Shown here: one piece after another, positions 19,228 through 52,982 of the stretch
Numbering within the stretch: position 1 is the stretch's first letter
Layout of the letters: each line of letters begins with the position of its first letter
Assembly (NCBI GenBank): GCA_026388185.1
Contig: JAPLKG010000008.1
Coordinates: 198,184 to 262,183, forward strand
Direction: 5' to 3'
Source: Candidatus Eiseniibacteriota bacterium
Lineage (GTDB): Bacteria > Eisenbacteria > RBG-16-71-46 > JAFGJU01
DNA length: 64,000 nt
Position numbers and translations under genes: made by a program
The notes under the pieces: model-generated
Database searches by the model: none
Seen by the model: the letters and a program-made list of their open reading frames with translations, nothing else
Told to the model about the DNA's origin: nothing

Positions 19228-19239
19228 TGTGAACCCTGT

Positions 19240-19324
<85 letters not shown>

Positions 19325-19339
19325 AAGAGATCGTTGTGT

Positions 19340-19400
19340 GAGCGTAATCCGGAAAGGATAGTGTGTTACAGCCTCTTATCCGGAAGTGGCTTAAGCCACA
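19340..19400 (+). repeat. Left-end motif, copy 1 (partner 21092-21152)
   Basis: Ungapped alignment 46/61 identical; TWATCCGGAA twice at a 31-bp period. Confidence 0.8.
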
Positions 19401-19444
19401 CCTTTCGATCATGGTTTGTCTCGTAGGCAGGACGAGGTGAAGCG

Positions 19445-20620
19445 ATGAATTTGGGTGCAATCCAATCCGCGCTTTCTGACGCCAAACTGGACGGTTGGCT
19501 ATTCTATGACCATCACCACCGAGATCCGATTGCGTACCGCGTGCTCAAGCTCGACGCTCCAATGTGCACACGCCGATGGTACTACTTGATTCCTGCCGAA
19601 GGTCAGCCAACGAAGCTCGTTCATCGTATCGAGCGGAGCAATCTTGAAGCTCTACCGGGAACCGAGCATCAATATTCGTCCTGGCGCGAACAGCGCGAGA
19701 AGCTGCAGGAGATGCTCGCTTGCAAGGCAAAGGTTGCGATGCAGTACTCTCAGTTGAACGACATTCCCTACATCGGTCTGGTAGACGCAGGCACGGTTGA
19801 ACTGGTAAGGAGTTTTGGGGTTGAAGTTGTATCCTCGGCGGACTTGGTACAACTGTTTGAAGCGCGCTGGTCGACCGAAGCCCTGGCTCTTCATCTCGAA
19901 GCGGGGAAAGTAGTCCACGCTGCTGTCGACACAGCATTCAGAACGATCCGCGATGCCGTACAAACACGCGAAGCAATCGGCGAGTACGAGGTTCAACAGG
20001 AAATCGTCCGATTTTTCGAAACGCACGGCGTCGAGTCGGATGACCCGCCCGTTGTAGCAGTGAACGAAAACACCGCCAACCCCCACTATTCGCCAACGCT
20101 GCAAACCTCCCGTCTGATACGGGAGGGCGATTTTGTTCTCTTGGACGTTTGGGCGAAGCGAAGAGCCCGAGAGGCCGTCTATTTCGATATTACCTGGACG
20201 GGATATGTCGGCGAGGCCGTTCCGGATCGGTACGCGAGGATCTTCGAAATCGTTCGAGAGGCCCGTGACGTGGCCATCGAACTTGTCCAACAAGCCTTGC
20301 GCGGAGGTCGCCCTCTGCGCGGCTACCAGGTGGACGAAGCCGTGCGCGATGTCATCACGCGCCACGGATATGGTGAGTATTTCATCCACAGAACGGGACA
20401 TTCGATCGGCGAGGATGTCCACGGCAACGGCGCCAATATTGACAACTTCGAGACGCGCGATAACCGCGCGATTATTCCTCGAACATGTTTCTCTATTGAA
20501 CCTGGAATTTATCTACCTGAATTCGGCGTGCGAAGTGAAGTGGATGTTTACATCGAGGAAAGCGACGCGCGAGTGACCGGTGACATTCAAAAGGCCATTG
20601 TTCCCATCCTCGCCAAGTAG
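19445..20620 (+). CDS. M24 family metallopeptidase (Xaa-Pro aminopeptidase-like)
   Basis: NPHY, LLDVWA, FDITW, HRTGHSIG..VHG, FSIEPGIY, VRSE metal ligands. Confidence 0.92.
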   Translation: MNLGAIQSALSDAKLDGWLFYDHHHRDPIAYRVLKLDAPMCTRRWYYLIPAEGQPTKLVHRIERSNLEALPGTEHQYSSWREQREKLQEMLACKAKVAMQYSQLNDIPYIGLVDAGTVELVRSFGVEVVSSADLVQLFEARWSTEALALHLEAGKVVHAAVDTAFRTIRDAVQTREAIGEYEVQQEIVRFFETHGVESDDPPVVAVNENTANPHYSPTLQTSRLIREGDFVLLDVWAKRRAREAVYFDITWTGYVGEAVPDRYARIFEIVREARDVAIELVQQALRGGRPLRGYQVDEAVRDVITRHGYGEYFIHRTGHSIGEDVHGNGANIDNFETRDNRAIIPRTCFSIEPGIYLPEFGVRSEVDVYIEESDARVTGDIQKAIVPILAK

Positions 20621-20654
20621 GGAATTCGCGCCATATCTAGATCGTGTTCTTTTT

Positions 20655-20762
20655 CCCCACGTGTGCCCCGAGAGCTAATGATGCTGTCAGAATTTTCGAC
20701 GCGTGAGTCTCAAGGGCAGTCAGTTCCTCTTGTCGCAGTTCTGTACAAGCCGCGCCCTCGGC
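20655..20762 (+). repeat. Right-end motif plus att-like core, copy 1 (partner 31592-31699)
   Basis: Ungapped 89/108 identity; ends in GCCCTCGGC. Confidence 0.85.
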
Positions 20763-20790
20763 GACCACACTACCACATGCCGTTTCGTGA

Positions 20791-20819
20791 TTGACACAGG
20801 ACTTGTCTTGTGATATGTT
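20791..20819 (+). promoter_or_regulatory. sigma70 promoter at the head of element 2, facing the cassette array (Pc-like)
   Basis: TTGACA-17 nt-TATGTT with TG extended -10. Confidence 0.65.
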
Positions 20820-21091
20820 TGCAGCACTCGACGCGACAGGTATATCGCCTCTTGCATGACCAGCAGTTACGCGTCCGCACAGTTCAGGAACTTTTGCGGT
20901 ATTAGGGACCCCTAGACCGTGACGGTCTACGCACACCCGCTGAGCGGGGGAAGGGCAGGGCGAACGGAATCATAGGGTGTGGGTCTAGCGACACGAGTGT
21001 GGTCTTATGCCGAAACAGCGCAACACCACGTGAGATCACGGGAGTTTGGCTAATAGTCCGAACGAAGCGTAGCTGGGAGCCAATTGACAAT

Positions 21092-21152
21092 GAGTGTTAT
21101 CTGGAAGAGATAGCGTTCTACATGCTCTTATCCGGAAGCGACGTAAGGCATA
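21092..21152 (+). repeat. Left-end motif, copy 2 (attI/operator-like)
   Basis: 46/61 identity to 19340-19400; directly followed by GTTCGGG and the SD of the first cassette gene. Confidence 0.75.
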
Positions 21153-21172
21153 GTTCGGGAAAGGAGCAGAAG

Positions 21173-21475
21173 ATGGGTGAGAACAAAGCACATAAGGCAG
21201 TAGTCCACCGCATCATTCACCAGTATGGTGGAAAGTGCGATCCCGAGAAGGGAGCTGACGTCAAGATCCCCTTTATTGGGACTGTGGAGGCCGAAACTGA
21301 CAAGATAGTCTCCGTGGCTCTTACTCAACTCCGAGGCTACCGCGGACCCGTGTATGTCGCAGGAACAAACGCTGTCGAGAAGACATTTGAGGTCAAGACA
21401 GGCACGACGATTGGTGTAACGGATAACAAGGGCAATATCATCAAATCGTCAACACGAAAAAGGCGATGTCCCTGA
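21173..21475 (+). CDS. 100-aa hypothetical protein, first cassette-like gene
   Basis: AAGGAG SD, ATG 21173; stop codon lies inside the left box of an attC-like site. Confidence 0.75.
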   Translation: MGENKAHKAVVHRIIHQYGGKCDPEKGADVKIPFIGTVEAETDKIVSVALTQLRGYRGPVYVAGTNAVEKTFEVKTGTTIGVTDNKGNIIKSSTRKRRCP

Positions 21476-21526
21476 CCAGGCCCTGGAGCGTATGGGCTAC
21501 CGCGCCGCTCAACGCCATCGTTAGGC
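21470..21526 (+). other. attC-like recombination site (57 bp)
   Basis: CCCTGAC-CAGGCC-CTGGAGCG...CGCTCAA-CGCCATC-GTTAGGC: perfect GTTRRRY, inner boxes pair with one extrahelical G; left box has GAC instead of AAC. Confidence 0.65.
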
Positions 21527-21574
21527 CTTCAGCGAAGACACGAACATCCACGTTGCCTGAAAGGAGGTGCGACA

Positions 21575-22327
21575 ATGAGCCGAGTTGTCGCAAGCACGTC
21601 CGCAGCGCTGTTGATCCTGTTTCTTGGCTGCATGGGCCAGGAGCACACTTCATCTGACAAGGCGAAGAGTTTGCCCACGCGTCAGTACGAGTCAGCGGCC
21701 ACAGGGGCTCGGACGCCTCAGGAGGTCGACAAAGCGACCACCGCACCTACCACGAGTCCCACGGACCCGCACAGAAGTGGACAGGCGCGGGATAGGATCA
21801 CCGCAATCAACCCGTCGAAGATTCATATTGATTCTGAGGGCCGTATTGTGACGAAAGATCTTTCCTATGAAGAAATGGGGAAATTGGCAGAGGCCCTAGC
21901 GGAGGCTGATGAATCTGGTGAGCTTCAATCATCTAGAGAATACGACGTAAGTAAGGACAATAGAGGCAGAACTACTGACATGTCGGAAAGGCCACAGGGC
22001 GAAGCGGCTGGCGAGTGGCGCGTCGAGTTCGAATACACCGATCCACAATTGCGTGCAGTCGGCATCGCGGACGCGGCGCGCGCCATTGATGAGCATGGTA
22101 ATGTACTGGCTCAGGCTACGCTTCTCAGGCTGCTCACGGGCGAGGGTAACCAGTTCAAGGGTGCCGAAGTTGAGGAAAGGCATTTCGATGCTAGAGGGCG
22201 CGTTTACTTCAGCTGCAAGAGCCAATTCAGCTTCCCGCTTGGACGAAAGACCGGCGAGTCGGACGCACGAGGACGCAGGACCAGGGACTATTTCTCCCAG
22301 TGGCCACTGCTGGCGGGGATCCCGTAG
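21575..22327 (+). CDS. Hypothetical lipoprotein (cassette-like)
   Basis: AAGGAGG SD, signal with lipobox FLGC, starts 49 nt after the attC-like site. Confidence 0.75.
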   Translation: MSRVVASTSAALLILFLGCMGQEHTSSDKAKSLPTRQYESAATGARTPQEVDKATTAPTTSPTDPHRSGQARDRITAINPSKIHIDSEGRIVTKDLSYEEMGKLAEALAEADESGELQSSREYDVSKDNRGRTTDMSERPQGEAAGEWRVEFEYTDPQLRAVGIADAARAIDEHGNVLAQATLLRLLTGEGNQFKGAEVEERHFDARGRVYFSCKSQFSFPLGRKTGESDARGRRTRDYFSQWPLLAGIP

Positions 22328-22416
22328 ATCGACGATGCAGCCCACCAGCGAACACGTCCGCCCTGGCTCCGATGACCATCAGTCCGCCTTGCGTGGCCCA
22401 CGTGCGAGAGACCACG

Positions 22417-22839
22417 ATGGTACCTGTAACGGGACTCTACGCGGGCGGCAAGCATCCGCGCGACTCGGCAATCTTGTTGAGATTGCCGAGGGCATTGAAT
22501 ACACACCCGAACTATCCCAGGACGGAGCGATGGCTGTTGTGCGTTCAGTCTTTCGTGGAACGAGTAGGCTGCTCGGCCCGTCCGGGTCATGGTGAATCTG
22601 CAGCGGCAGAGTGGAACGTGTGGGCGCAGGCGGTGCCATATGTGGAAGCGGAGATCGCCGTTCTTGCCGAAGGCCGGTGGCTGGACCCGGCTCGCGACGC
22701 AGCGCGTGTGCACATCTGCATCAATCCAGCAAATGAAAACCGATTCTTCGCGGTTCCTTACAGAACGGCTGGCACGCTGACACGCGTTCGTTTGACCATC
22801 GTAGACAACGCGACCGTTTACAAGTTTGCATCGCCTTAG
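22417..22839 (+). CDS. Hypothetical protein or fragment
   Basis: Open frame between attC-like half sites; no recognisable motif; start uncertain. Confidence 0.3.
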   Translation: MVPVTGLYAGGKHPRDSAILLRLPRALNTHPNYPRTERWLLCVQSFVERVGCSARPGHGESAAAEWNVWAQAVPYVEAEIAVLAEGRWLDPARDAARVHICINPANENRFFAVPYRTAGTLTRVRLTIVDNATVYKFASP

Positions 22840-23285
22840 CCAACTTCATTGGCAAACGGAAGAGATACTTGGGATACTGGAGCTGAGCACGACGGGAACC
22901 CGATGGGTGCAGATCCGAATCAGGAATGAACGAGATGGGAGGTGCCCCCCCGTCCTCGCGGCAGGAACGGTTCGGGTCACCCCGGAATGCTAATTGCGCG
23001 TACGTAACATCTCGCCAGCTCAACACGCGACCAGAACATGTGGTGCTTACATCGGAGGACCAAAGACTGGGCATCAACGCACAACACAGATCGCATTCTA
23101 GCTGATTCGGAGAGCCGCGGTTTGCGCAGCGTGATTCGTGCCTGGTGATACGAGTCACTGCTTAGCATGATCGAGCTTGGTCATCGGGAGACACAGCTTA
23201 ACGGAAGGATTGACGTCGCGATTGGGGGCGGTCGCATTCAGTTCGGCAGAGTGGGTAGTTGGCGTGCGGCTGCCTGACTATCTAT

Positions 23286-23307
23286 GTCGCTGATCTTATC
23301 GTTGAGC
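23286..23307 (+). other. attC-like right arm
   Basis: GTCGCTGAT-CTTATC-GTTGAGC (GTTRRRY); no intact left box nearby. Confidence 0.45.
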
Positions 23308-23316
23308 GAATTGCAG

Positions 23317-24768
23317 ATGGGATACCGACTCAACGTTGTCCTAATAATGCCGATACTTGCGGGCTGTCTGCTCACATCATGCCGGGGAACAAATCACTAT
23401 GATAGGAAAGAGGAATCTAAATCGCTCGGAGACACGCCTAGTCATGGTTCGCTATGGACACGGCCCACGACTTATGCGGGCAACCTCTACAACAAGATAC
23501 AGTTATCAGACATTCACGTTGAAGGCGATTATACAAGGACTACGTCCCCGGATGGACGAATCGTGATTAGTGAGAGTGTGGTGGTTGAAGCACACAATTC
23601 CTTCAATGGAGTCACCGAATTCGAGAAGATTAACCTAACTGTCGGCAGGCATCCAATATCCAAATACAGGAGAGTTCATAAGGATGACCTAGGCAGGACC
23701 GTTGTCCTAGAAGAGGGCGAAGAGCCACCAGAGGATATCCTTGTTGAACAAGCTACTAACTTCAAGCCAACTCTGACCTACTATCGTTTCTATTCCGATT
23801 GCGAATACTCTTTGGGCAGGTGCGAGTTACCTGAAATGATTGTGAGAACAACATGGGACGATTCTAGTGACAAAAGAATACGCGATTTGAGCATTAGAAA
23901 AGAGACACTCACCAGGGAAGTAGCTGAGGTACTGCACCACGACGGCCCTTTCTCCCTTGCAAAACTCTGGAGATGGTACATTATGGCAGAATATCAAAAG
24001 GACGCGAACGAGTGCTCCCGAGAACACCTGTTCAATAAATACTCTCCTTCTACCAAAGCCAGAGAGGAGGTGGCGGTAAGAATTAGGATAATTGACAGCA
24101 TCAATGTTGCAGTGAAAAACCTCGACAATCAGAACATTCGGAGAGAATTCATCGCGCTTCTTTCAAAACCCGATTCAGTTTACGGGAATGGTAATACAGA
24201 GTATTACACACAAAGGGTGATAACTACTCAACCACTTACGGGCAAGGATGTTTTTCACTGCTATCACGAGATTTTGAACCATCTGAGAGAGAGTCAGTAT
24301 TCGCACAGCCCCCTGTTGGACGGGATAATCGAATCGTTCAAAGAGATAAAAGACGATCGTGGCAATACTGTGATTGTTCTCACTGGTTACAGTGTAGTTG
24401 ACCCAAAGACTGGTTTTGTTGCAGGAGCCCCTCGCTACATTGAATTTCGCGTTTTCCCTCCGCCGTTCAGAGTACTGACACGTAGCCAGATAAGCAGTCG
24501 TATAGAACAGGTTGAGAAGCAACTTGAGAGAGGAGTAGGTGAGGATGAGATAGGATTGCCGTACTTTGAGACTCTTGAGTACATGCAGAAGGAAAAGGAG
24601 ATTCTCGAAGAGATGATTGAGGAGTGGTCCCTGACAAACGAACCACAGATGATTGTTTATCTACCCGAGATCCTCCTTTTCCACGCTGGTATTCCCATAG
24701 AGAGTTACACGTACAAGTATGATCCGCAGAAAGGAAACGGGGCAGACCATTATGTAGGTCTGAAATGA
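23317..24768 (+). CDS. Hypothetical lipoprotein, visibly lower GC than flanks
   Basis: Long ORF with A/T-rich codons, lipobox LTSC; start moved to ATG 23317 because 23284 lies inside the attC-like arm. Confidence 0.75.
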   Translation: MGYRLNVVLIMPILAGCLLTSCRGTNHYDRKEESKSLGDTPSHGSLWTRPTTYAGNLYNKIQLSDIHVEGDYTRTTSPDGRIVISESVVVEAHNSFNGVTEFEKINLTVGRHPISKYRRVHKDDLGRTVVLEEGEEPPEDILVEQATNFKPTLTYYRFYSDCEYSLGRCELPEMIVRTTWDDSSDKRIRDLSIRKETLTREVAEVLHHDGPFSLAKLWRWYIMAEYQKDANECSREHLFNKYSPSTKAREEVAVRIRIIDSINVAVKNLDNQNIRREFIALLSKPDSVYGNGNTEYYTQRVITTQPLTGKDVFHCYHEILNHLRESQYSHSPLLDGIIESFKEIKDDRGNTVIVLTGYSVVDPKTGFVAGAPRYIEFRVFPPPFRVLTRSQISSRIEQVEKQLERGVGEDEIGLPYFETLEYMQKEKEILEEMIEEWSLTNEPQMIVYLPEILLFHAGIPIESYTYKYDPQKGNGADHYVGLK

Positions 24769-25096
24769 TTCATGAAGAAGGTGAGCATGTTCAGCGGCGA
24801 ACATGTCGCAGCTTCAGTCAACAAGGGATTTGCGCGAATAGCACTGGCAGAATAAAGAGCCGAGAGTGGAAGCGTGGTTTGACATGGAAGAAAGGCTATC
24901 TCCATTTCGGTGCGGTCTCATTGGCGAAGGTACATGGAATGCACATAGATATGCTGAGAAGCGGCGGGAGACGACACGATGTCGGTTCAGTGAAAACGCG
25001 GGAACTCCAACAAAGGCGCGCACGTGCACTGAGATTCCGCCGCGCTTCATCCCCGCCGGTAATGCCTAACGCTGGGGCGCAGGAGGAGGGTATCTT

Positions 25097-25918
25097 ATGT
25101 CTGGAACTACTGAATCGATTCTCGTAGGTCTTGGTATAGGTCTTGTTGTTCTTGCGGTCAGCATGGCGATCAAACCTGTACCACGGCGCGCTGCGATCCT
25201 GATGGCCGTTGGCACTGGGATTATCGCGTTTGTGCTTTGGCCGCGGGCCGTTCTGGTAGAAGTGCCAGATCTGTCTGACCTCAGTAGAGATGAGGCCGAA
25301 CTGGAGCTATCCTCCGCGAAGCTCGACGGAGCGCCGCAACCTCAGGAGGCTCCAAACACGCGTCCAGACCACGTCGTGCCGATGTCACAGAGCCCACTTC
25401 CAGAGACTAAGGTTCACCGCGGCACCCTGGTTCGGTATTCCATCAGCACGCCAACATCCACAGTGTCTGGGAAGGCCACCGACTCCGATAGCACACGGGG
25501 GCATGTCTTGGTGTCAATATTCTCGCCGAGGCATGGCGGTGAGGTTGTGCCTGTGCGCGGGGCGGATAACATATTTAGGTTCGATGTGGAAGGTACACTC
25601 GAAGGTGTCGATCTCGCAAGATATTCTCTGCTCCTATGGGTCCAACCTGTTGCGCCGCCGAGCGACCAGCCCGGATGGTACTTGCAGCGGCTCCCAGCCA
25701 ATGGCGTTCGTTCAATCTCGGGAAACAGGTGGTCCGGGGTGTGTCAGATCGGTAACCAGCAGTATCCGCCGAATGAGGGCGACATGCTCGAGGTCGTAGC
25801 CTCTGTTGTGCCAGCCGGCGAGGCCGAACGCCTGGAAGCTAGGCAAGGACCTCTGACGGCTGTTGTGGTTCCCGGGTCCGTGTCACAGGTTGTTAGAGTC
25901 AAAGTGCGCTTGAAGTGA
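25097..25918 (+). CDS. Membrane-anchored PASTA domain protein
   Basis: GGAGGAGG SD, two N-terminal hydrophobic segments, VEVPDLSDLSRDEAELEL...SQSPLPETKV.RG..V PASTA pattern. Confidence 0.75.
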   Translation: MSGTTESILVGLGIGLVVLAVSMAIKPVPRRAAILMAVGTGIIAFVLWPRAVLVEVPDLSDLSRDEAELELSSAKLDGAPQPQEAPNTRPDHVVPMSQSPLPETKVHRGTLVRYSISTPTSTVSGKATDSDSTRGHVLVSIFSPRHGGEVVPVRGADNIFRFDVEGTLEGVDLARYSLLLWVQPVAPPSDQPGWYLQRLPANGVRSISGNRWSGVCQIGNQQYPPNEGDMLEVVASVVPAGEAERLEARQGPLTAVVVPGSVSQVVRVKVRLK

Positions 25919-25925
25919 GATAGCG

Positions 25926-26034
25926 CTCTAACCAGTAACTTGAGACGGACGAATGCTGCGGCGTCACAGGTCTTGCGCGAGTGATGGCAACAGTCACGCC
26001 GCCTCCGCCCCGCCGCTCAGCGACATCTTTGGTA
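25926..26034 (+). other. attC-like site (109 bp), right box degenerate
   Basis: CTCTAAC...CTTGAGACGG...GCGGCGTCAC/GTCACGCCGC inner stem...CCGCTCAGC-GACATC-TTTGGTA; parallels the right arm of the 21470 site but G of GTT is T. Confidence 0.55.
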
Positions 26035-26284
26035 TGACTCCCGCTGCCAACGTGACTCCGATTTAGCTCTGCCGCGGGTGACTCGGCCCGCCGCGTTGCC
26101 GGATGCGCAGCCTTGCATCGCGGAACGATCTTTGCGAAACCCGCTGCAAGTCCGCGTATCGGCAGTGGCGAGGTGGGCGATTTGCTTAGCCATCCACCGC
26201 GCGATGGTGACTCTTCCGGACGCCGGCAAGACAAGAGTTCCACCGGCGAAGGAACACCATGTACATTTGTCAGGAGATGAGGCC

Positions 26285-29200
26285 GTGAAAGGGGTTAGTA
26301 GTCCATATGCAACAGGGGGAGGCGGCGTGCGTTTAGAGCATGAGATCGCCGCGTCCGCCTTGGCAAGCTTGCTACTGGGCCAGCCCGTCGATGGACTGGG
26401 CGATGATGTCACGCCGATGCGCGTGGCGATGCAGCAGGAGGTGTATTCACCTGTTGACGATATTCACGTGCACGGTACCTTCCCGGGCGGCGAGCGTACA
26501 CTTCAAATCGCGTGTAGGCGGCGACCCACGGTTGGTAAGAGTGATGAATCTACAGTCAAGCTGTTCACTGACTATGTGAAGGTCGTGCTCGACAAGCGGA
26601 CCGCGATTGACAGAGGTGAGATACGACTCGGCTTGGCAGTCGCCGGGCCATATGGGCCGGCGACTGAACTTGCGGTTCTTACAGATACCGCTCGGCTTCA
26701 GCCTGACCGTGCCACCTTCGAAAGCGCTGTAGCTGCACCTGGCGCATACTCCGCGGACATCCGAGCGCGGCTAACGTATGTTGACGAATTGGTGGCTGAA
26801 TCTCTGAGCAGGGTGCTGCGGCCCGCAGGGCCTACGCCTGATCCCAAGGAGTTGAGCTGGGTCCTTCTTCGCGCGCTGTTTGTTCTTCAGACGCAGCTTG
26901 AAGGAAACGTGGCGCCAGGGCGGACCAACGTTGTCGCCAGGCTGCAGGTTCTTACAGGAAATACTCCGCGCGCAGAGCAGCTACGCCTGCGATTGGTTGA
27001 GATCGCATCACAGGCAGAGATTCGAGCTGGATCGATTGACCGTCCGATGCTGAGAAGACAGCTGCACTCGTTCGGGCCGCTCGGACCATCTCCCGACTTC
27101 GGCTTAGCGAAGTCACAGATCACCCTCCTTGAATCCGAACTGAACCGAAGAACGCAGCGCTCCTTGGCGGCTTCGGCTGCGAGCGGTTCATTCATACTCG
27201 ACCGATCGAAACAGCAGGCGGAACTCGTGGACTGCATCTCAAAGGTACCACAGAGTTCCGTCGTTCTCGTGCGAGGTGAGCCGGACGTTGGGAAATCCGC
27301 GCTGGCACTTGAGGCGATAGCATTTATAAGAGAAGCTGGTGGTGCAGCAATCGCGATGAGCCTTCGAGATCTGCCGCCGAGTGCACTGAGTCTCAAGTCT
27401 GCCCTAGGCCTTGCACCTGTCGATCTATTTGCCGCAGCGCCCTCGGCCCCCGTGAGCGTGTTGCTTCTCGATGGGGCTGAAGTGATACAGGAAAGTGACG
27501 CCGGTGCAGTCGGCGTCCTACTCGACGCCGCCTCGACTACGGGAATGACCACTGTTCTGGTAGCACGCGACGACGCGGCTGGATCTGTGCTCGACTTGCT
27601 GCGATCACGAGGCCATGACATTGCGCTCGAGTTCTCAGTGGCGCCGTTGTCCGATGAGGAGATCGCGACGATCGTGGAAGCGATTCCCGAATTGGCGCGG
27701 CTCGGTTCTGATCCGCGATCGGCGTGGTTGCTGCGTCGGCTCGGTCTCATCGAGCTCTTGCTTCAAGCTACGCAACGCGGGACGAGCCTGCCGGGGACGC
27801 TTTCTTCAGAGGCCGAGGTCTTCGCCACGGTGTGGTTGAGCCTGATTCGCCAAGACGGAAGGAGTGTCGGCGGGATCGCACCGGATGACCGTGAAATCGC
27901 CGCAATTAGTGTCGCACGTCAGCTCTTAACTGGTGCACCGAGTGTGGTCACTGGCCCCGCACCGGCTTCGCTGCGCTCTGACGGCGTTCTTCTCTCACTG
28001 GACCGGTCAGCAGCCTGGCAGAAGAGCGACCGATTCGCTTCAGATGTTCTTCGCGATTTTGCAGCAGCACGACTCCTCCTGCGGGAAGGCCTGCAGGTGT
28101 TGCTCGGCTCCACTGCGCCGAGGTGGGCAATTCGGGCAACGCGCCTCTACTCGCAGGCTAGGCTATCGGATGCCGCTTCCCGCGGAGAGGGTGCAATCGC
28201 AGCTGCCTGGGCGGAATTGCGAAGCGAGTTCCGAGGACTCTCGTTGAAGCACGGTGCGCGATGGGGTGAACTTCCGTGGGAAGCGCTGCTGACGGCTGCG
28301 TGGGCCGATCGTGCCCTATCTGAACTTACGCCACAACTGCTCAGTGACCCTGATTTGCAAGCAGAGGCAATTCGCTGTGTGAAACTCCGCTTTTCGGACG
28401 CGGGTGCTTGCGACCCAGTCGTCGCTGCCCCGCTGGTATCATGGCTCACGAATAAAGCCGCCGCGCTGGACCGACCTAGGTCTTATGACAAAGATCCGGT
28501 TGTCGAACTCGTTCGATCGTGGCTACGCGGCGTCGGCCGGCGCGAAGTGCTGGGGAAAGAGATCGATAACTTCAGGCAGCTGCGGTCTCAGCTGCGAGAC
28601 GCTCTCTTGCGCCGAGCAGTGGAGCGCAGCGAGGAGGAGCGTATCGAGTGCCTGGGTCTGCTGGGGTCTGAGGCAAATGAAGCAAGCACGCAGGCCTTGC
28701 GATCGATCACCGAGCATCATCCCGAATCTCTACACCCGATTGTAGAGAGTTTGGACGCGGCCGGGCTGCTGGCGAAGCAGAACGTGGCGCTGCTCGCGGA
28801 TCTTACGGAAGCGTACTATGTCAAGAAGCCGCACCGATCTTCCCGGGACAGTTCGTGGGACGATGAAGGCATCCGCCGTCACCGGGGCGGTGACCTATAC
28901 ACTCCGCTGGCGGCGTGGTATCGCGGCCCGTTCCTTTTCCTCCTTAGAGGGGATCCAGAACGTGGCATCCGGATGATCAACCGCATGCTGGAGCGCGGTG
29001 CTCGTCGGCGCGTCGAAGTACTTCAGGAGCTCAGCGGACACCCACGCAAGAACACCCCACAGGATGAGAAAGAGAACGGCATTTCATTAGACCTTCTTGG
29101 GTACGGCGACCGTCTGTACATCGGCGACCCGCATGTTTGGTGTTGGTACCGAGGGTCGTCAGTCGGCCCTTATCCATGCATGTCCGCGCTCTTCTCCGTC

Positions 29201-31240
29201 GAGATGATGCTGGACGAGCTTGTGAAAGCAGACTTGCCAGCTCGAACACTTGCGTCCTGGGTGCTGCACGATGCAACGACCCTAGCTAGCCCAGGACTGA
29301 TCTATGGATTTCTCGTGCGTCACATTGAACAGGTCACGGACGAACTTGATGGCTTCCTTTCCGTGCCTGAAGTATGGGAGCTTGAGATCAGCCGAAGGGT
29401 TTCTGAGGGTCAGCTTCATGTCCAGGGCGCAGATTCACCAGAGCGTGTCGGCAGAGAGCGCCGCCGCTGGACACCCTTCGAGGTTGCAGCGAAGCTCGTC
29501 TTCGACGCCGCTCAGCGCGGTGACACTAAAGCGTTGGAAAGACTGCGGAGCATAGGAGAGCGCTTGCTTGAAAGGGCCGGAGGCGTGAGTGCCCCCCCGC
29601 ACGTCCGCCAATGGGTGGCCTATCTTGACAGGAACAGTTATTCGGTGGAGCAGCAAGGTGATGATATAGTGCTGAAGGTGAAATTTCCCGAGGATGTCGT
29701 CCAGGCGATGGCACCCGCGCGGACGCAGTCTGCAAGAGTGTCAGAAATGTTCAGGTTGCTGAACCGCTACCGACCGCGCCACGATACTCCCTACCGGTAT
29801 GCTCCAGCAAACCCACCGGACGAACTCGAGCTTGCCAAAGACATCGCGACGGCCAAGGAGCTACAGGCAGAGTTGGTGGATCAGCCACTTGACACATTAC
29901 GTGCCGCGCTCGCAGGCGTGGCTGCGACGGTGATTCAGGCCGCGTCGGGTAGCCTTGTTGTACCTCCCGAGAGCTTCCGCTGGGCCGTTCCGCTTCTTGT
30001 GGAGTGTGCGACACGGCCTCACATGGACGATCTTGCGACAGAAGGGACGATATTCCCTGATGGGGCCGATCGCAAAGCAGCACTGGTCCTCCCGAGGGCG
30101 CTGGAGGCCGTCGATCAACTCGACGCTGCAGCGACTGGGCAGGTGGGAAGCGCCATCACTGCATGTGCGACGAGTTTCTTCTTGGAGGTTCGGCAGAACG
30201 CTGCTGAAGGGCTGCGTCACATACTCCAAAGCCCGTGCAAACTGATCAGCGGCGGGCGTTGCTGGCACGAGCTAGCCTGGGCAGCCATCGAGGCGGCCGC
30301 CCGGAGTGTCATTCTGGGTCCTCAGTCCGCGAATGGCCGGCGTCAGTTAGGAGCGATAACGGGTGACGTTATCACAGGGCTTGAAACAAGTTCGGAGCGT
30401 GACCTGATGCTCACGCACATCGCACCGGCTGTAATCTGCACGATCGACGCGGCTCGGGTGAGCTCCTGCATTAGCACACGAGCAGCACACTTACGAGATG
30501 CATTGCTAAACGCTTACGCGCGGTCGGCATGTCATTGGGCGAAGAACAACTACGACTGGCGTAACGAGCAACATGCCGCATTCGCAGCAGCAGTTCTGCG
30601 CTGGGCGTCAGGGGGAAATCATTCCGTGATTGTTGAGATCGCAAAGCGTCTGCGGTCCTCGCCTTTGGCGTTGGGCAATTTCCTTCACGCACTTACGATT
30701 GTTGCAACCTATCAGGCCTCAGCCGTGCAGCCGCTGGCGGAGACATGGTCCCAACTGATGGACTTGGGATTGGCAGTGCTTCGTGACCGAACGCTCGCTA
30801 GCGATCGGCACGACGTCGACGAATTACTGCAAGACCTTGTTCCTGATCCTAAGCCTTCAGCCTACGTCCAAAACATAGATGAGGTTTTGAAACAGGCCAA
30901 GGCACACTGGCTCTCGATCGAGGTTGTAGCCGCACACATCGATGAGTGGCTCCGGCACGCTTTCGGTCGCCATTGGTGCATAGACCCACTCCTGGCCTTC
31001 TTGCAGGCACAGCCGGTTCAACAACAAGCGAACCCCGGGCTGAAGTGGATCCGACGACTCGTGATTGGGGAGGGCGGAATTGCTCAGACGAGCGGATTTT
31101 TCTTGGTGGGTTGGCTCGGGGAGCTGCGTGACTCACATGTTCTCGGCACCGACACCTGGCCAGAGTACCGGGCAATCGTTGACGGTCTGGTTCTGGGCAA
31201 TTTCGCGGGAGCGCGCGATCTGCAGCGCGGCGACGAGTGA
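26285..31240 (+). CDS. Large STAND-like P-loop NTPase (~1650 aa) with N-terminal PD-(D/E)xK-like domain; candidate anti-phage sensor
   Basis: SSPYATGGGGV.LEH..VDDI..LQIACRR N-terminus, Walker A GEPDVGKS, Walker B LLLDGAE, long helical C-terminus; start re-set to GTG 26285 after AGGAG. Confidence 0.75.
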   Translation: MKGVSSPYATGGGGVRLEHEIAASALASLLLGQPVDGLGDDVTPMRVAMQQEVYSPVDDIHVHGTFPGGERTLQIACRRRPTVGKSDESTVKLFTDYVKVVLDKRTAIDRGEIRLGLAVAGPYGPATELAVLTDTARLQPDRATFESAVAAPGAYSADIRARLTYVDELVAESLSRVLRPAGPTPDPKELSWVLLRALFVLQTQLEGNVAPGRTNVVARLQVLTGNTPRAEQLRLRLVEIASQAEIRAGSIDRPMLRRQLHSFGPLGPSPDFGLAKSQITLLESELNRRTQRSLAASAASGSFILDRSKQQAELVDCISKVPQSSVVLVRGEPDVGKSALALEAIAFIREAGGAAIAMSLRDLPPSALSLKSALGLAPVDLFAAAPSAPVSVLLLDGAEVIQESDAGAVGVLLDAASTTGMTTVLVARDDAAGSVLDLLRSRGHDIALEFSVAPLSDEEIATIVEAIPELARLGSDPRSAWLLRRLGLIELLLQATQRGTSLPGTLSSEAEVFATVWLSLIRQDGRSVGGIAPDDREIAAISVARQLLTGAPSVVTGPAPASLRSDGVLLSLDRSAAWQKSDRFASDVLRDFAAARLLLREGLQVLLGSTAPRWAIRATRLYSQARLSDAASRGEGAIAAAWAELRSEFRGLSLKHGARWGELPWEALLTAAWADRALSELTPQLLSDPDLQAEAIRCVKLRFSDAGACDPVVAAPLVSWLTNKAAALDRPRSYDKDPVVELVRSWLRGVGRREVLGKEIDNFRQLRSQLRDALLRRAVERSEEERIECLGLLGSEANEASTQALRSITEHHPESLHPIVESLDAAGLLAKQNVALLADLTEAYYVKKPHRSSRDSSWDDEGIRRHRGGDLYTPLAAWYRGPFLFLLRGDPERGIRMINRMLERGARRRVEVLQELSGHPRKNTPQDEKENGISLDLLGYGDRLYIGDPHVWCWYRGSSVGPYPCMSALFSVEMMLDELVKADLPARTLASWVLHDATTLASPGLIYGFLVRHIEQVTDELDGFLSVPEVWELEISRRVSEGQLHVQGADSPERVGRERRRWTPFEVAAKLVFDAAQRGDTKALERLRSIGERLLERAGGVSAPPHVRQWVAYLDRNSYSVEQQGDDIVLKVKFPEDVVQAMAPARTQSARVSEMFRLLNRYRPRHDTPYRYAPANPPDELELAKDIATAKELQAELVDQPLDTLRAALAGVAATVIQAASGSLVVPPESFRWAVPLLVECATRPHMDDLATEGTIFPDGADRKAALVLPRALEAVDQLDAAATGQVGSAITACATSFFLEVRQNAAEGLRHILQSPCKLISGGRCWHELAWAAIEAAARSVILGPQSANGRRQLGAITGDVITGLETSSERDLMLTHIAPAVICTIDAARVSSCISTRAAHLRDALLNAYARSACHWAKNNYDWRNEQHAAFAAAVLRWASGGNHSVIVEIAKRLRSSPLALGNFLHALTIVATYQASAVQPLAETWSQLMDLGLAVLRDRTLASDRHDVDELLQDLVPDPKPSAYVQNIDEVLKQAKAHWLSIEVVAAHIDEWLRHAFGRHWCIDPLLAFLQAQPVQQQANPGLKWIRRLVIGEGGIAQTSGFFLVGWLGELRDSHVLGTDTWPEYRAIVDGLVLGNFAGARDLQRGDE

Positions 31241-31591
31241 GTCCTGGGTACACGATGCGGCGTCGAGCCATGACGCGACCAACACGGATGAGGTCTCCGC
31301 GAAGACGTGCGCGCGTACATATGTGTGTTTATGAGTAGGATTTTCCGCAAGTGCAACTGCCCACCGGACAAGCAGGAGAGGGCGACGCTGACTGTCGCTT
31401 GACCAGGCGGAGGTACTGTCGGAACTATGGGCTGGCTGAGGGTTGGTGTCGTGAACTAATCGAGGGGGGTAGGGGCCGATGCTCTGATCTTCAACCCAAT
31501 GAGGGAGCAGGAATCGCAAGAGAGGCACAGAGACGCCGCAGGAGCAGGTGGGTGAGCTTCAACACATATCCTTATCCTTAGCCCTTTTTCT

Positions 31592-31701
31592 CCCCACATG
31601 TGCCCCGAGAGCTAGCGATGCTGTCAGAATCTTGCCCACGCGAGCCTCGAGCCACGTCAGTTCTTCCGGTCGCAGTTCTGTACAAGCCGTGCCCTCGGCA
31701 A
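31592..31701 (+). repeat. Right-end motif plus attR-like core, copy 2
   Basis: 89/108 identity to 20655-20762; GCCCTCGGCAA identical to the tRNA-Leu 3' end. Confidence 0.85.
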
Positions 31702-31710
31702 GAAGAAACC

Positions 31711-33363
31711 TCATGCGGTCGAGCCGGCCGGAACGGCAGTCTCTTCTTTCCCGGTCTCTTCCGCTCTTGTCTCCTCCGTCCCATCGATGTTTCTCGGCAG
31801 ACACACCTTGAACGTGGCTCCTTTGCCTTTTTCGCTCTCGACCGTAATCTTCCCTTTGTGCAGGTCCACGAATCCCTGCACGAGGTACAGACCGAGGCCC
31901 AGACCGTGATAGCGACCTTGCGCCGGCTTGGAACCCTGGGTGAAGAGACCGAAGATCCTGCTCATCTCGTCGCTGTCCAGTCCTATTCCGTTATCCTTCA
32001 CGCACAATTCTATCCACTCGCTGGTCGCGCGAGTGCCCACCACGACCTCGCCTCCCTCTTCAGTGAACTTTATCGCATTTCCTACCAGGTTGAGCACGAT
32101 CTGCCTCAGCTTCGTTCCGTCTGCGCGAATGGGATCCAGTTCCGGGGCCAGGTCCAGCTTGACCTCGATTCCCTTGCACTTTCCGGTAGGCTCTAGCGCA
32201 ATGACCGCGGAGCGAGCGATTTCGTTGACGTCCGTTTCTTCCAACTCAAGTTGCAGCGTGCCCTTCTCGAGCTTGGAAAGGTCCATGAGCTGTTCCGTGA
32301 GATCCAGCAACTTGGATCCTTGTTCATGCATTATCGAGACGAATTTCTTCCTGTCGGTTTCCGAAAGCTTGCTGTCCTGCTCGTCAAGAAGCTCGGCGAG
32401 CGAGACGATGCACGTGAGAGGCGTTCTCAATTCGTGGCTCAGCGTGGCGACAAAGACCTCCTTCATCTGGTTCAACGTGGCAAGCTCTTTGTTGGATTCT
32501 TCGAAGAACAGTTTTCTCGCGTCCACCTTCTCGTACACGAGAGCCTTTCGGATGACGCCCGCGATGTTCTCACCGAAAGCACAGAGCAGGCGCAACTGCG
32601 ATCGCTTGAAGCGTTCGTTCGAACCGACGCGGGTGACGTTGAGCACGCCGACGGTCGTCTTTCTTAGCTTTATCGGCACGCTCATCGCGGAACATATATC
32701 GTTGTCTGCTTTTGTGTAGGGCAGGAACCTCCCGAGCTCGTGTCCGTGCAGCAAGAGAGGCTTTCCGTTGGCCGCCACCCAACCTGCGATTCCCTCTCCC
32801 ACGGCGACTCTGTGGTTCTGCATTCTCTCGCTGTCGAGGCCCCAGGCAGCCTTGCACTCGAGCATACCCGTGGACGGGTTCACTATCATGAGCGAGGCCC
32901 TGTCGGCGCCCAGGCAATTCGGGAGCCTGCGCACGACTATCTTGATGATGCCGTCGAGCTTCAATCTCATGTTTATGGCGGTGCCGACCTCGAAGAGCGC
33001 CGAAAGCTCGGACAACTGAGCCTGCAGGGTCGCGGCGTTGACCTTCTCGTTGAAAAGCCTGGTCCTCAATTGTGCCAGGTTCGTCTGGCCCTGAAGCATG
33101 TACAGGCAGAAGAGAACGACAAGGCCCGCCAGGCCCAGAATCACCGTGCTGCCGCCCTGAAGAACCGGAACCGTCGAGTCGGTCAAATCCTCAGTAGCCG
33201 ACAAGTAGAGGAGTCCAGTGGCCGTGGCAAACGCACTCAGAAGAAGAAACACAACGATCCAGTGTCGAATGTTGGATTTCTCGACCGGACCGAATGGTTT
33301 CCTGCTGCCTCTCTCCTTTGATTCCATCACTAAAGAAGATCCTCCATGGGAAGGGGATTCCAT
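31711..33363 (-). CDS. GAF-domain sensor histidine kinase
   Basis: Two TM helices, GAF (GEGIAGWVA..GKPL), SHELRTPL, NLVGNAIKFT, DNGIG, GLGLGL. Confidence 0.93.
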   Translation of the reverse strand: MESPSHGGSSLVMESKERGSRKPFGPVEKSNIRHWIVVFLLLSAFATATGLLYLSATEDLTDSTVPVLQGGSTVILGLAGLVVLFCLYMLQGQTNLAQLRTRLFNEKVNAATLQAQLSELSALFEVGTAINMRLKLDGIIKIVVRRLPNCLGADRASLMIVNPSTGMLECKAAWGLDSERMQNHRVAVGEGIAGWVAANGKPLLLHGHELGRFLPYTKADNDICSAMSVPIKLRKTTVGVLNVTRVGSNERFKRSQLRLLCAFGENIAGVIRKALVYEKVDARKLFFEESNKELATLNQMKEVFVATLSHELRTPLTCIVSLAELLDEQDSKLSETDRKKFVSIMHEQGSKLLDLTEQLMDLSKLEKGTLQLELEETDVNEIARSAVIALEPTGKCKGIEVKLDLAPELDPIRADGTKLRQIVLNLVGNAIKFTEEGGEVVVGTRATSEWIELCVKDNGIGLDSDEMSRIFGLFTQGSKPAQGRYHGLGLGLYLVQGFVDLHKGKITVESEKGKGATFKVCLPRNIDGTEETRAEETGKEETAVPAGSTA

Positions 33364-51719: not shown

Positions 51720-52982
51720 ATGTACTACTTCTATTTTCTGCCGGTCGGTACCGAGATCAGGCTACGCAAGGTTCCTCTCGTGACGCTGGCTCTCTTGGGG
51801 GGTAACGTTGCCGTCTTTGTCGCCCTCCGCCTTCTTGGTACGGATAGCCGCTTCCTCCTGCGGCTCGCCTTTGTCCCGGCACGTTTTGAGATCCATGCGC
51901 TGTTCACTTCGTGTTTCGTCCACCTGGATTACCTACACATAATTCCGAACCTCTTGTACTTGTGGATATTCGGCTCCGTCCTGGAGGATCGCATGGGACG
52001 GCTCCACTACCTCGGGGCCTATCTGGTGTGCGGCGCGCTTTCCATGATGGCCCAGGCCGTCGCCGTAGCGAATCTCGTGCCCCAAAATTTGACATTCCCT
52101 ATCATCGGTGCCTCGGGCGCCATCTCGGGACTTCTCGGCCTGTTCCTTGTGAGGTTCTACTACGCTCGCATAAAGGTGGCGTCGCTGACCCTTCTCTTCT
52201 TCCAGGGAGTCTACCGCGCCTCAATCTCCAGGCTCAACGCCGGAGGGGCAATGCTATTGTGGATTCTCATCCAGCTTGCCTACGGTCTGTCTTCCTCTTC
52301 GAATCCGGTTTCCACGACCGCTTACTGGTCGCATGTGTCGGGCTTTCTGTTCGGTCTTCTCCTGGGCATCACCGGCGGACTCGGGAAGGAGGCGAGCCTG
52401 GAGAGGAAGCTTCTCAAGGGCAGGAGGTACTTCGAGGAGGGCAAGTGGTTTGCCGCAATGGGCGAGTTGATAGAGTTCCTGCAAACGAGGCCCCTTGATG
52501 CCGAAGCGAGGGCACTTCTCGCGAGGACGTTCTTGCTGACTGGGCAGAGGACCAAGGCAGTGGCCGAATATTCAAAGGCCGTCGTCGGTGAACTCAGCGC
52601 CGGCGGCTTCAGAGTCGCGGCGGAACTCTACGAGGAAATGAAGAGGGTCTCCGACGAGGCGAAGCTTCCTTCGTCTTTTCAGTTGTTGATGGCCAGGCAC
52701 CTCGAGGAGAGCAATCGTCTTGACCTGTCTGCGGAAGCCTACGCCACGTTTGGCGGCGCGAACCCGGGAATGGACAAGGCGCCGGCCTCGCTGCTGAAGG
52801 CGGCAGGAATCTACGCAACCAAACTCAATGACCTCGACAAAGCAGGTGAACTTTACCAGAGAGTGAGAGGTCTATATCCGCAGACCCGCTGGGCTCAGAT
52901 TGCAAGGAAAAAACTGGCAGAGATAGGGAGAATCGCGGCCAGGAGAAGCGCCTTCCCACAGAACGGCTTCGTCTCATCTTGA
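51720..52982 (+). CDS. Rhomboid family protease with TPR-like C-terminus
   Basis: HIIPNLLYLWIFG..LE, IGASGAISG, SHVSGFLFG; start re-set to ATG 51720. Confidence 0.88.
   Translation: MYYFYFLPVGTEIRLRKVPLVTLALLGGNVAVFVALRLLGTDSRFLLRLAFVPARFEIHALFTSCFVHLDYLHIIPNLLYLWIFGSVLEDRMGRLHYLGAYLVCGALSMMAQAVAVANLVPQNLTFPIIGASGAISGLLGLFLVRFYYARIKVASLTLLFFQGVYRASISRLNAGGAMLLWILIQLAYGLSSSSNPVSTTAYWSHVSGFLFGLLLGITGGLGKEASLERKLLKGRRYFEEGKWFAAMGELIEFLQTRPLDAEARALLARTFLLTGQRTKAVAEYSKAVVGELSAGGFRVAAELYEEMKRVSDEAKLPSSFQLLMARHLEESNRLDLSAEAYATFGGANPGMDKAPASLLKAAGIYATKLNDLDKAGELYQRVRGLYPQTRWAQIARKKLAEIGRIAARRSAFPQNGFVSS

Follow-up and report, generated by a model that had tools for sequence, protein, structure and literature searches.

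Candidate tandem, integrase-less islands at a tRNA-Leu(TAA) gene with a shared and coding-constrained right-end block

We analysed a 64-kb stretch of contig C5 of a Candidatus Eiseniibacteriota genome (the window, whose coordinates are used for all positions given without a contig) and, within it, a segment of ~12 kb that lies between a tRNA-Leu(TAA) gene and a histidine kinase gene. The segment consists of two modules, of 1.4 and 10.9 kb, each of which carries a copy of a leader motif, D2, and ends on the right in a block, D1, that finishes in a copy of the tRNA tail. The tRNA gene, the predicted attachment gene, occupies 19239-19325 on the plus strand and is intact (ARAGORN; Rfam tRNA match of 60.6 bits); its last 11 nt and the adjoining flank read GCCCTCGGCAAAGAGA at 19315-19330. 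Module 1 opens with D2a (19337-19406, plus strand; 48.8 bits), in which the model match starts at 19337 and the repeat at 19339, that is, 12-14 nt past the tRNA. D2a stops 39 nt short of the start codon of the module 1 cargo, a gene for an M24 metallopeptidase of 391 aa (19445-20620, plus strand; Pfam PF00557, E 6e-41). The module closes with D1a (20650-20762), whose terminal tRNA-tail copy, GCCCTCGGC, lies at 20754-20762. A strong sigma-70-type promoter (20791-20819, plus strand; TTGACA-17-TATGTT with a TG, 10 of 12 matches) lies 29 nt past this core and occupies the left end of module 2. It is followed by D2b (21087-21165, plus strand; 63.7 bits), which stops 7 nt before the start codon at 21173, and by the module 2 cargo (21173-31240, plus strand), comprising five or six ordinary genes that include one for a 1720-aa nucleoside triphosphatase (NTPase). 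D1b (31587-31706) ends module 2 with the terminal sequence GCCCTCGGCAAGAAGA at 31691-31706. The gene for the GAF-HisKA-HATPase histidine kinase (31711-33363, minus strand; Pfam domains) forms the conserved right flank, and synteny with relatives resumes there. Two other assemblies, Logan contigs from the same population, hold the locus at 99.995% identity and with identical structure.

The repeats of this segment had been noticed in an earlier annotation made from the letters alone (the sequence-only reading), which reported a tRNA-tail core recurring at 20754 and 31691, a pair of left motifs and a pair of right motifs at 82% identity. All three were recovered here. In a repeat search, the D1 pair (20650-20762 and 31587-31699) aligned without gaps over 113 nt at 82% identity (BLAST E 7e-27), and the D2 pair (19339-19398 and 21091-21150) over 60 nt at 77% identity. 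The 9-mer GCCCTCGGC is present on the plus strand at 19315, 20754 and 31691. The 11-mer GCCCTCGGCAA is present at 19315 and 31691, the exact tail copy at 20754-20762 being only 9 nt long. According to the alignment of 31691-31706, the distal copy matches the tRNA at 11 exact nt and, with its flank, at 14 of 16 positions; it ends 10 nt from the kinase stop codon. Among the 48 tRNAs of this genome, a same-strand copy of the last 10 nt lies within 20 kb downstream in three cases and upstream in two. Since such 10-mer repeats are not rare in the genome, the tail repeat by itself is weak evidence. It gains weight because it sits at an independently defined boundary, ends a 113-nt homologous block and recurs in other genomes. 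A separate repeat on the same contig concerns tRNA-Leu(GAG), ~70 kb past the window end, the last 15 nt of which are repeated without mismatch 6.8 kb downstream (C5:331926-338822).

The independent boundary is provided by relatives. In a genome of the same family and another genus, G002, a nucleotidyltransferase-like gene, TPM, LemA, tRNA-Leu(TAA), the convergent GAF kinase gene and the next two genes follow one another. There, 126 nt alone separate tRNA-Leu(TAA) from the kinase stop codon, and the region is otherwise colinear with the window minus 12.4 kb. This adjacency indicates that 19326-31701 is extra DNA at the 3′ end of the tRNA gene, and the empty site bears out the insertion at tRNA-Leu that had been proposed from the sequence. 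G002 is devoid of D1 altogether. In a further relative, G003, both flanking blocks are kept but lie 220 kb apart, so the junction between tRNA and kinase is also a breakpoint there; the DNA just past tRNA-Leu(TAA) in that genome (L021, G003:C1:863660-863775) includes a masked stretch of N. The M24 peptidase has orthologues in genus g3 that are 83-84% identical and occupy another locus, convergent with an outer-membrane protein gene and with no D2 upstream. In the genome studied here, that outer-membrane protein gene adjoins a different gene. The peptidase is missing from two other genera of the family. We rejected a recent transfer of the M24 gene on grounds of identity, as PilT, EF-P and SigE have similar values (80-83%); thus, its identity alone is no sign of transfer and its changed location alone is.

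D1 has no third copy in this genome, and 206 genomes of the phylum yielded none at all. A scan of metagenome contigs with an exact pattern, the core-proximal 27 nt of D1, returned three contigs, along which we walked. One of these loci belongs to a related species in which the kinase is 80% identical to that of the window and the products of the next two genes are 75-76% identical. Its order is LemA, tRNA-Leu(TAA), ~39 kb of other DNA, a D1-like block, 115 nt and the kinase gene. The ~39-kb cargo includes arsenic (ars), chromate and metal efflux (resistance-nodulation-division, RND) genes, ATP-binding cassette (ABC) transporters and an extracytoplasmic function (ECF) sigma factor, and none of its called genes bears an integrase Pfam domain. 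The D1-like block is 46 nt long, 93% identical, and terminates in GCCCTCGGCAAGG, with the same 11-nt tail copy. In this layout, therefore, the same site and the same end block surround unrelated cargo. The second contig, L048, begins in a D1 block and past the core runs into VapBC and HigBA cassettes; it is an internal junction of the D1a type. In a more distant member, L062, the core is kept and the sequence across it is GGCAATTTCCTGGGCGG, which resembles the post-tRNA sequence of the G002 empty site, GGCAATTTTCCGGGTCGCG; an attR site would be expected to look like this. In an alignment of all copies, homology ends at the core. D1, the right motif of the earlier annotation, thus behaves like an island end.

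The related species also shares a 3.3-kb ABC transporter/ArsR module with the genome studied here (C17:29484-32752 and L053:1818-5085), at 96% nucleotide identity. Compared with the ~80% protein identity of core genes, this value indicates that the module was exchanged recently and between differing genomic contexts.

The behaviour of D2 is different from that of D1. Using nhmmer and a sequence-only covariance model, we found ~30 copies of this 75-nt leader in the genome; four relatives from its family have zero to two weak matches each. D2 is missing from all of the relatives' loci searched, including the equivalent island of the related species. Each copy stands shortly before the start codon of a gene, always in the orientation of that gene, and the genes themselves are unrelated. 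In the 64-kb window, both copies fall inside the island, out of register with the cores: D2a lies 14 nt past the tRNA core and D2b 329 nt past the second core. Most of the other copies are found on other contigs, near Xer-like recombinases, in stacks of single unrelated genes (C12:25000-39600, C8, C18, C19, C3:118500-123400 and C13:62100-66500). A unit of these stacks consists, in order, of the gene for a 175-aa protein (complete, or a 3′ piece whose length varies), a terminator hairpin, a TTGACA-17-TATGCT promoter, D2, and a ribosome-binding site with one gene. The right edge of D2, GTAGTTRGRC, is sharp in all copies and its left edge is variable. A structured RNA was considered and rejected: RNAalifold gave no pairs, the tested helices were without covariation, and there was no Rfam match. 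Rather than an end signal, D2 is a 5′ leader common to ~30 accessory genes, most of them in stacks on integrated elements. Of the shared pair of end motifs that the sequence-only reading had described, the right one holds, as the D1 end brackets unrelated cargo in other genomes, and the left one does not: its ~30 copies are scattered without a link to tRNA-Leu cores, an outcome that the reading itself had named as refuting it, and are absent from the relative's island.

Several observations concern the stacks themselves. The 175-aa protein (C12:25077-25613; copies on C8, C18 and C19) has a Lys-rich N-terminus and no Pfam domain. Its family has 347 metagenome homologues and, within the phylum, is found only here and in G008, in multiple copies in both. 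On other contigs the family adjoins prophage genes: in one, it comes after P2-like baseplate, tail and amidase genes, and in another it stands beside a LexA-like repressor and replication genes. The region C12:11900-45000, which contains one of the stacks, is a probable integrated element; a tRNA-Leu(TAG) gene lies at 52015. The element carries a primase-helicase, a ParB-methyltransferase fusion, an Xer-like recombinase, surface proteins with a type IX secretion system (T9SS) tail, the cassette stack, an N6/N4 methyltransferase and a serine recombinase. In the window, GGCAGAGTGGGTAGTTGGCG at 23246-23265, ~20 nt upstream of the low-GC gene for a 494-aa protein, reads like a leader motif (GCAGAGAGTG...GTAGTTGGGC) whose ends are joined with the middle left out, a likeness that may be due to chance.

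No recombinase family was matched among the open reading frames (ORFs) scanned in the segment, small ORFs included, and no match to PF00589 or PF00239 was detected anywhere on the 535-kb contig C5. These results agree with the claim that no recombinase ORF is present at the locus. A decayed integrase was also sought in the small ORFs of the island, and none was found. The genome, which is 98% complete, encodes seven tyrosine recombinases and one serine recombinase, all on other contigs. The tyrosine recombinases comprise one XerC-like protein, one unclassified protein, one of 281 aa and four paralogous Xer-like proteins near D2 arrays; the large serine recombinase, of 533 aa (C12:43344-44945), belongs to the integrated element at C12:11.9-45 kb. 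None of the recombinases of this genome was linked to D1. With scores of 88.8-169.5 bits against a TIGR02249 cut-off of 265, none qualifies as an integron integrase. The four Xer-like paralogues (C12:17536-18516, C4:5909-6910, C18:4317-5177 and C4:32401-33195) are 74-76% identical and, within the phylum, are found only here, apart from one copy in G001. At two of these four genes, a conserved TTTGGTGATAT box is followed by half of the leader motif, on the opposite strand and ~450 nt upstream of the gene.

The second segment had also been taken for an attC-like cassette array. It contains three R″/R′ box pairs, and the count over both strands is six, against ~2.8 expected at the window rate. 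The box pairs at 20.6-31.7 kb were near the chance rate and the best candidate had a z of −0.13 relative to shuffles; no attC-like site was recognized there. The segment holds ordinary genes instead, and the description as a cassette array does not hold.

Overall, the data point to 19326-31701 being a tandem of integrase-less tRNA islands of the type known as cis-mobilizable elements (CIMEs), which entered by site-specific integration at tRNA-Leu(TAA); we assign this reading a probability of about 0.5. The attachment site of each element would comprise a D1 arm of ~100 bp, a core that matches the tRNA tail exactly (GCCCTCGGCAA, followed by purine-AGA) and a left arm. A first integration would have rebuilt the tRNA at the left and left D1 and the core at the right, beside the kinase gene. 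A second integration at the tRNA-bearing site may then have placed module 1, with the M24 gene, between the tRNA and the older module 2. The integrase may have been lost afterwards or supplied in trans all along. On this account, a recombinase would have made the junctions, module 2 would have arrived before module 1, and the modules could still be mobile today. In common with islands recognized by Islander-type searches, the locus has an intact tRNA 5′ of the insert, a distal tail repeat and an empty site in a relative; the integrase that such searches look for inside the island was not found. In common with CIMEs, it is an island without integration and transfer genes. Its putative att remnants are the core copies and a conserved right arm, with no common left arm. 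The sequence-only reading had envisaged a family of shuttles that keep end signals and swap cargo. The D1 end fits that description, as it brackets unrelated cargo (the 39-kb metal island and the toxin-antitoxin stack) and no integrase was seen; the left motif does not.

A number of observations weigh against the CIME reading. The exact repeat is short, at 9-11 nt, and the chance rate of 10-mer copies is ~4% per 20 kb. D1b adjoins the kinase gene in two species and could be a resident chromosomal feature. Alignment of the four left junctions revealed no common left-end sequence, no integrase was detected in the 12-kb island, the 39-kb island or the toxin-antitoxin stack, and no active, integrase-bearing relative with a D1 end turned up. 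Finally, D1 is constrained like coding sequence. Over its variable 45 nt, D1b shares 10 of 15 residues with the relative L050 in spite of 18 nucleotide differences. The permutation P for this comparison is ~1e-4, and the other two minus-strand frames give P ~0.95. The amino-acid constraint argues against a plain recombinase-binding arm because such an arm does not predict it.

The constrained frame lies on the minus strand and reads AEGxACTELR(P/Q)EELxxLExxVxKIL; the peptide-like frame of D1a is VVAEGAACTELRQEEL... This frame exceeds the others both in identical residues and in synonymous codon changes in each of the three pairwise comparisons, and it is free of stops; the differences between D1b and L050 include an exchange of the arginine codons CGC and AGA. 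Three core codons (GCC GAG GGC) are identical at the nucleotide level in all five copies, whereas neighbouring codons vary synonymously. The start codon of the frame is not conserved: it is ATG in D1b, GTG in D1a, and lacking in L050. In D1b, the frame belongs to a small ORF of 51 aa (31559-31714, minus strand) whose ATG and the kinase stop codon overlap. When 1.84 billion proteins were searched with a profile, only five short ORFs of 33-99 aa were returned, two of them D1a-like, and no long protein. With the 51-aa ORF as the query, a search of 5.8 billion proteins returned the self-match only. Other identities for D1 were tried and set aside. A piece of a larger gene, such as an integrase, was ruled out by the profile search, which gave short ORFs only. 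As a hairpin or attC site, D1 had a z of about 0 on both strands. Scored as a decayed whole tRNA, D1b reached a z of 4.1, mostly from its 3′ end, and D1a a z of 2.2, and we retained a similarity to the tRNA tail only. A gene split across the core was not seen in module 1, where the tRNA-side frame is open for 14 codons, has no ATG, GTG or TTG, and has no similarity to the other copies. Given the coding constraint, the unstable start, and the lack of a fold or of a long protein, D1 qualifies neither as a plain binding arm nor as an ordinary gene.

In a more novel reading, which we consider distinctly improbable, D1 would be the ~100-bp arm of minimal shuttles that target tRNA-Leu and would also encode a conserved peptide of ~30 residues in a frame that spans the att core. 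Only in the circle, or only when integrated, would this gene be complete and have a start and a promoter, and it would report or control the state of integration; the shuttles would accept cargo of any kind, as little as one gene or as much as 39 kb, and draw their recombinase from elsewhere. This proposal builds on the invariance of the core codons in five copies, the conservation of the next 15-25 codons as amino acids, and a start codon that is different or missing in every integrated copy.

The odd status of D1 also keeps alive an explanation that dispenses with integration, which we judge to be rather unlikely. In it, the locus is a recombination hotspot: D1b would be a small gene or element resident past the end of the kinase gene, the interval between the tRNA and D1 would be plastic, with cargo swapped, after gene transfer, by double homologous recombination at the conserved flanks, the other D1 copies would be fragments of flank carried along, and the tail match would be an old scar or chance. 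The coding-type constraint on D1, together with its same place beside the kinase gene in two species, is what a resident gene would show, and the absence of an integrase from both the 12-kb and the 39-kb islands is consistent with it. The 96%-identical ABC/ArsR module, found in a different context, documents exchange without visible att sites, and many transfer hotspots are without mobile elements or integrases and turn over by recombination at the flanks (PMC5635113). The frequency of 10-mer tail repeats is compatible with a chance match as well. However, several copies of D1 (D1a, L048 and L062) mark internal junctions or stand in unrelated contexts, with homology ending exactly at the tRNA-like core, and a resident block does not account for the nucleotide invariance of the core codons next to synonymously varying neighbours. 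Nor does it sit well with a G002 locus devoid of D1, or with a peptide that has no conserved start codon and, in L050, none at all.

Two further explanations start from the other repeats. The leader could be the recombination site of the four Xer-like recombinases, in an integron-like system with double-stranded sites; D2a, close to the tRNA, would have served as a secondary attachment site, taking up first the peptidase cassette and later its successor. Copies of D2 do fill single-gene arrays that adjoin Xer-like recombinase genes, the half-motif lies upstream of two of the four recombinase genes, the right edge of D2 is sharp in all copies, and both window copies are confined to the island. 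Nevertheless, D2 sits in the arrays as a leader would, past a sigma-70 promoter and just before a ribosome-binding site, and it has a variable left edge, no inverted-repeat core and no structure or covariation. In G008, arrays of the 175-aa family had no D2-like leader in the two inter-cassette units read, that genome having been left out of the search with the D2 model, and G001 has the recombinase and no D2. D1 and the tail repeats are left unexplained too, and we regard D2-bounded cassettes as very unlikely. We give still less credence to a local segmental duplication of D1 and the promoter-leader inside a lineage-specific region, with no mobile element, in which the resemblance to att sites would be coincidental. 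The presence of just two D1 copies in the genome, with none in the 206 phylum genomes, and the failure of D1 to fold would suit such a duplication. By contrast, the D1 family is found on several independent metagenome contigs with different neighbours, an empty site exists, and the two copies are just 82% identical and flank unrelated genes.

The CIME reading places the locus among known systems. In islands related to ICESt1, CIMEs have lost their integration and transfer genes and kept attL and attR, and they occur in tandem accretions (Pavlovic et al. 2004, as summarized in PMC5704250). The modules described here are comparable in their tandem arrangement at the 3′ end of a target gene, the loss of integration and transfer genes, and their putative attL/attR-like sites. 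They differ in that no parent integrative and conjugative or integrative and mobilizable element with an integrase is known here, in their sizes of 1.4 and 10.9 kb, in the coding constraint on the right arm, and in being known from sequence alone. The ssrA islands of Dehalococcoides (PMC3146451) likewise stand in tandem past a small-RNA gene, have variable cargo and are bounded by short direct repeats that match the 3′ end of this gene; some are without an integration module and have been proposed to be CIMEs, and in one related element the repeat is embedded in coding sequence. Most of them, however, have a conserved integration module of six genes, including a CcrB-like serine recombinase, adjacent to attL, and a 20-bp repeat (PMC3146451), whereas the locus studied here has no such module, a repeat of 9-16 nt and its conserved block at the distal (attR) end. 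Like the transfer hotspots of PMC5635113, the locus is a variable interval between core genes with a tRNA at its edge, no integrase and unrelated cargo; unlike them, it has a D1 block with a tRNA-tail copy marking the module ends, internal ones included. The stacks of unrelated genes parted by repeated sites recall integrons and clusters of attC sites lacking integrases (CALINs), but they have no IntI and no attC hairpins, and the cassettes of the D2 arrays carry their own promoters.

The principle of such islands is not new. The small modules, the one end found on cargo of 1.4-39 kb, the lack of an integrase in every copy seen and the dual constraint on D1 exceed a routine island. If the CIME reading is correct, the phylum has a gene-capture site at tRNA-Leu(TAA) with modules of 1.4-39 kb, one conserved end and no recombinase of their own, whose cargo so far consists of a peptidase, orphan genes, metal resistance and toxin-antitoxin pairs. 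It would be a concrete test case for how integrase-less islands move and persist. The D1 block with the tRNA tail (pattern CAGTTCTGTACAAGCCGNGCCCTCGGC) supplies a short tag for fishing further members from metagenomes, and its constraint is unusual in being at the nucleotide level at the core and at the protein level beside it. The 30-copy promoter-leader unit that stacks unrelated genes could, for its part, help to understand how the accessory regions of phages and islands grow.

The remaining observations concern the cargo of module 2. Its five listed genes are four of small or medium size, without known families, and that of the large NTPase, all on the plus strand. They encode an orphan protein (ORFan) of 100 aa (21173-21475), a putative lipoprotein of 250 aa (21575-22327), a low-GC ORFan of 494 aa (23284-24768), a membrane protein of 273 aa with a weak PASTA match (25097-25918) and the AAA_16-like NTPase of 1720 aa (26078-31240). 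Scans against PHROGs, PADLOC and Pfam, and for the NTPase also against PDB sequences, gave no useful relatives for the cargo proteins, and the NTPase had no relatives among the GTDB representative genomes. In an Rfam scan of 15-36 kb, tRNAs alone were matched, with no other match at E values up to 1. The GC content drops to 45% at ~23.6-24.6 kb, compared with 55-60% around it. With its ORFans, this one low-GC patch, and an M24 gene that is placed elsewhere in genus g3, the cargo looks foreign.

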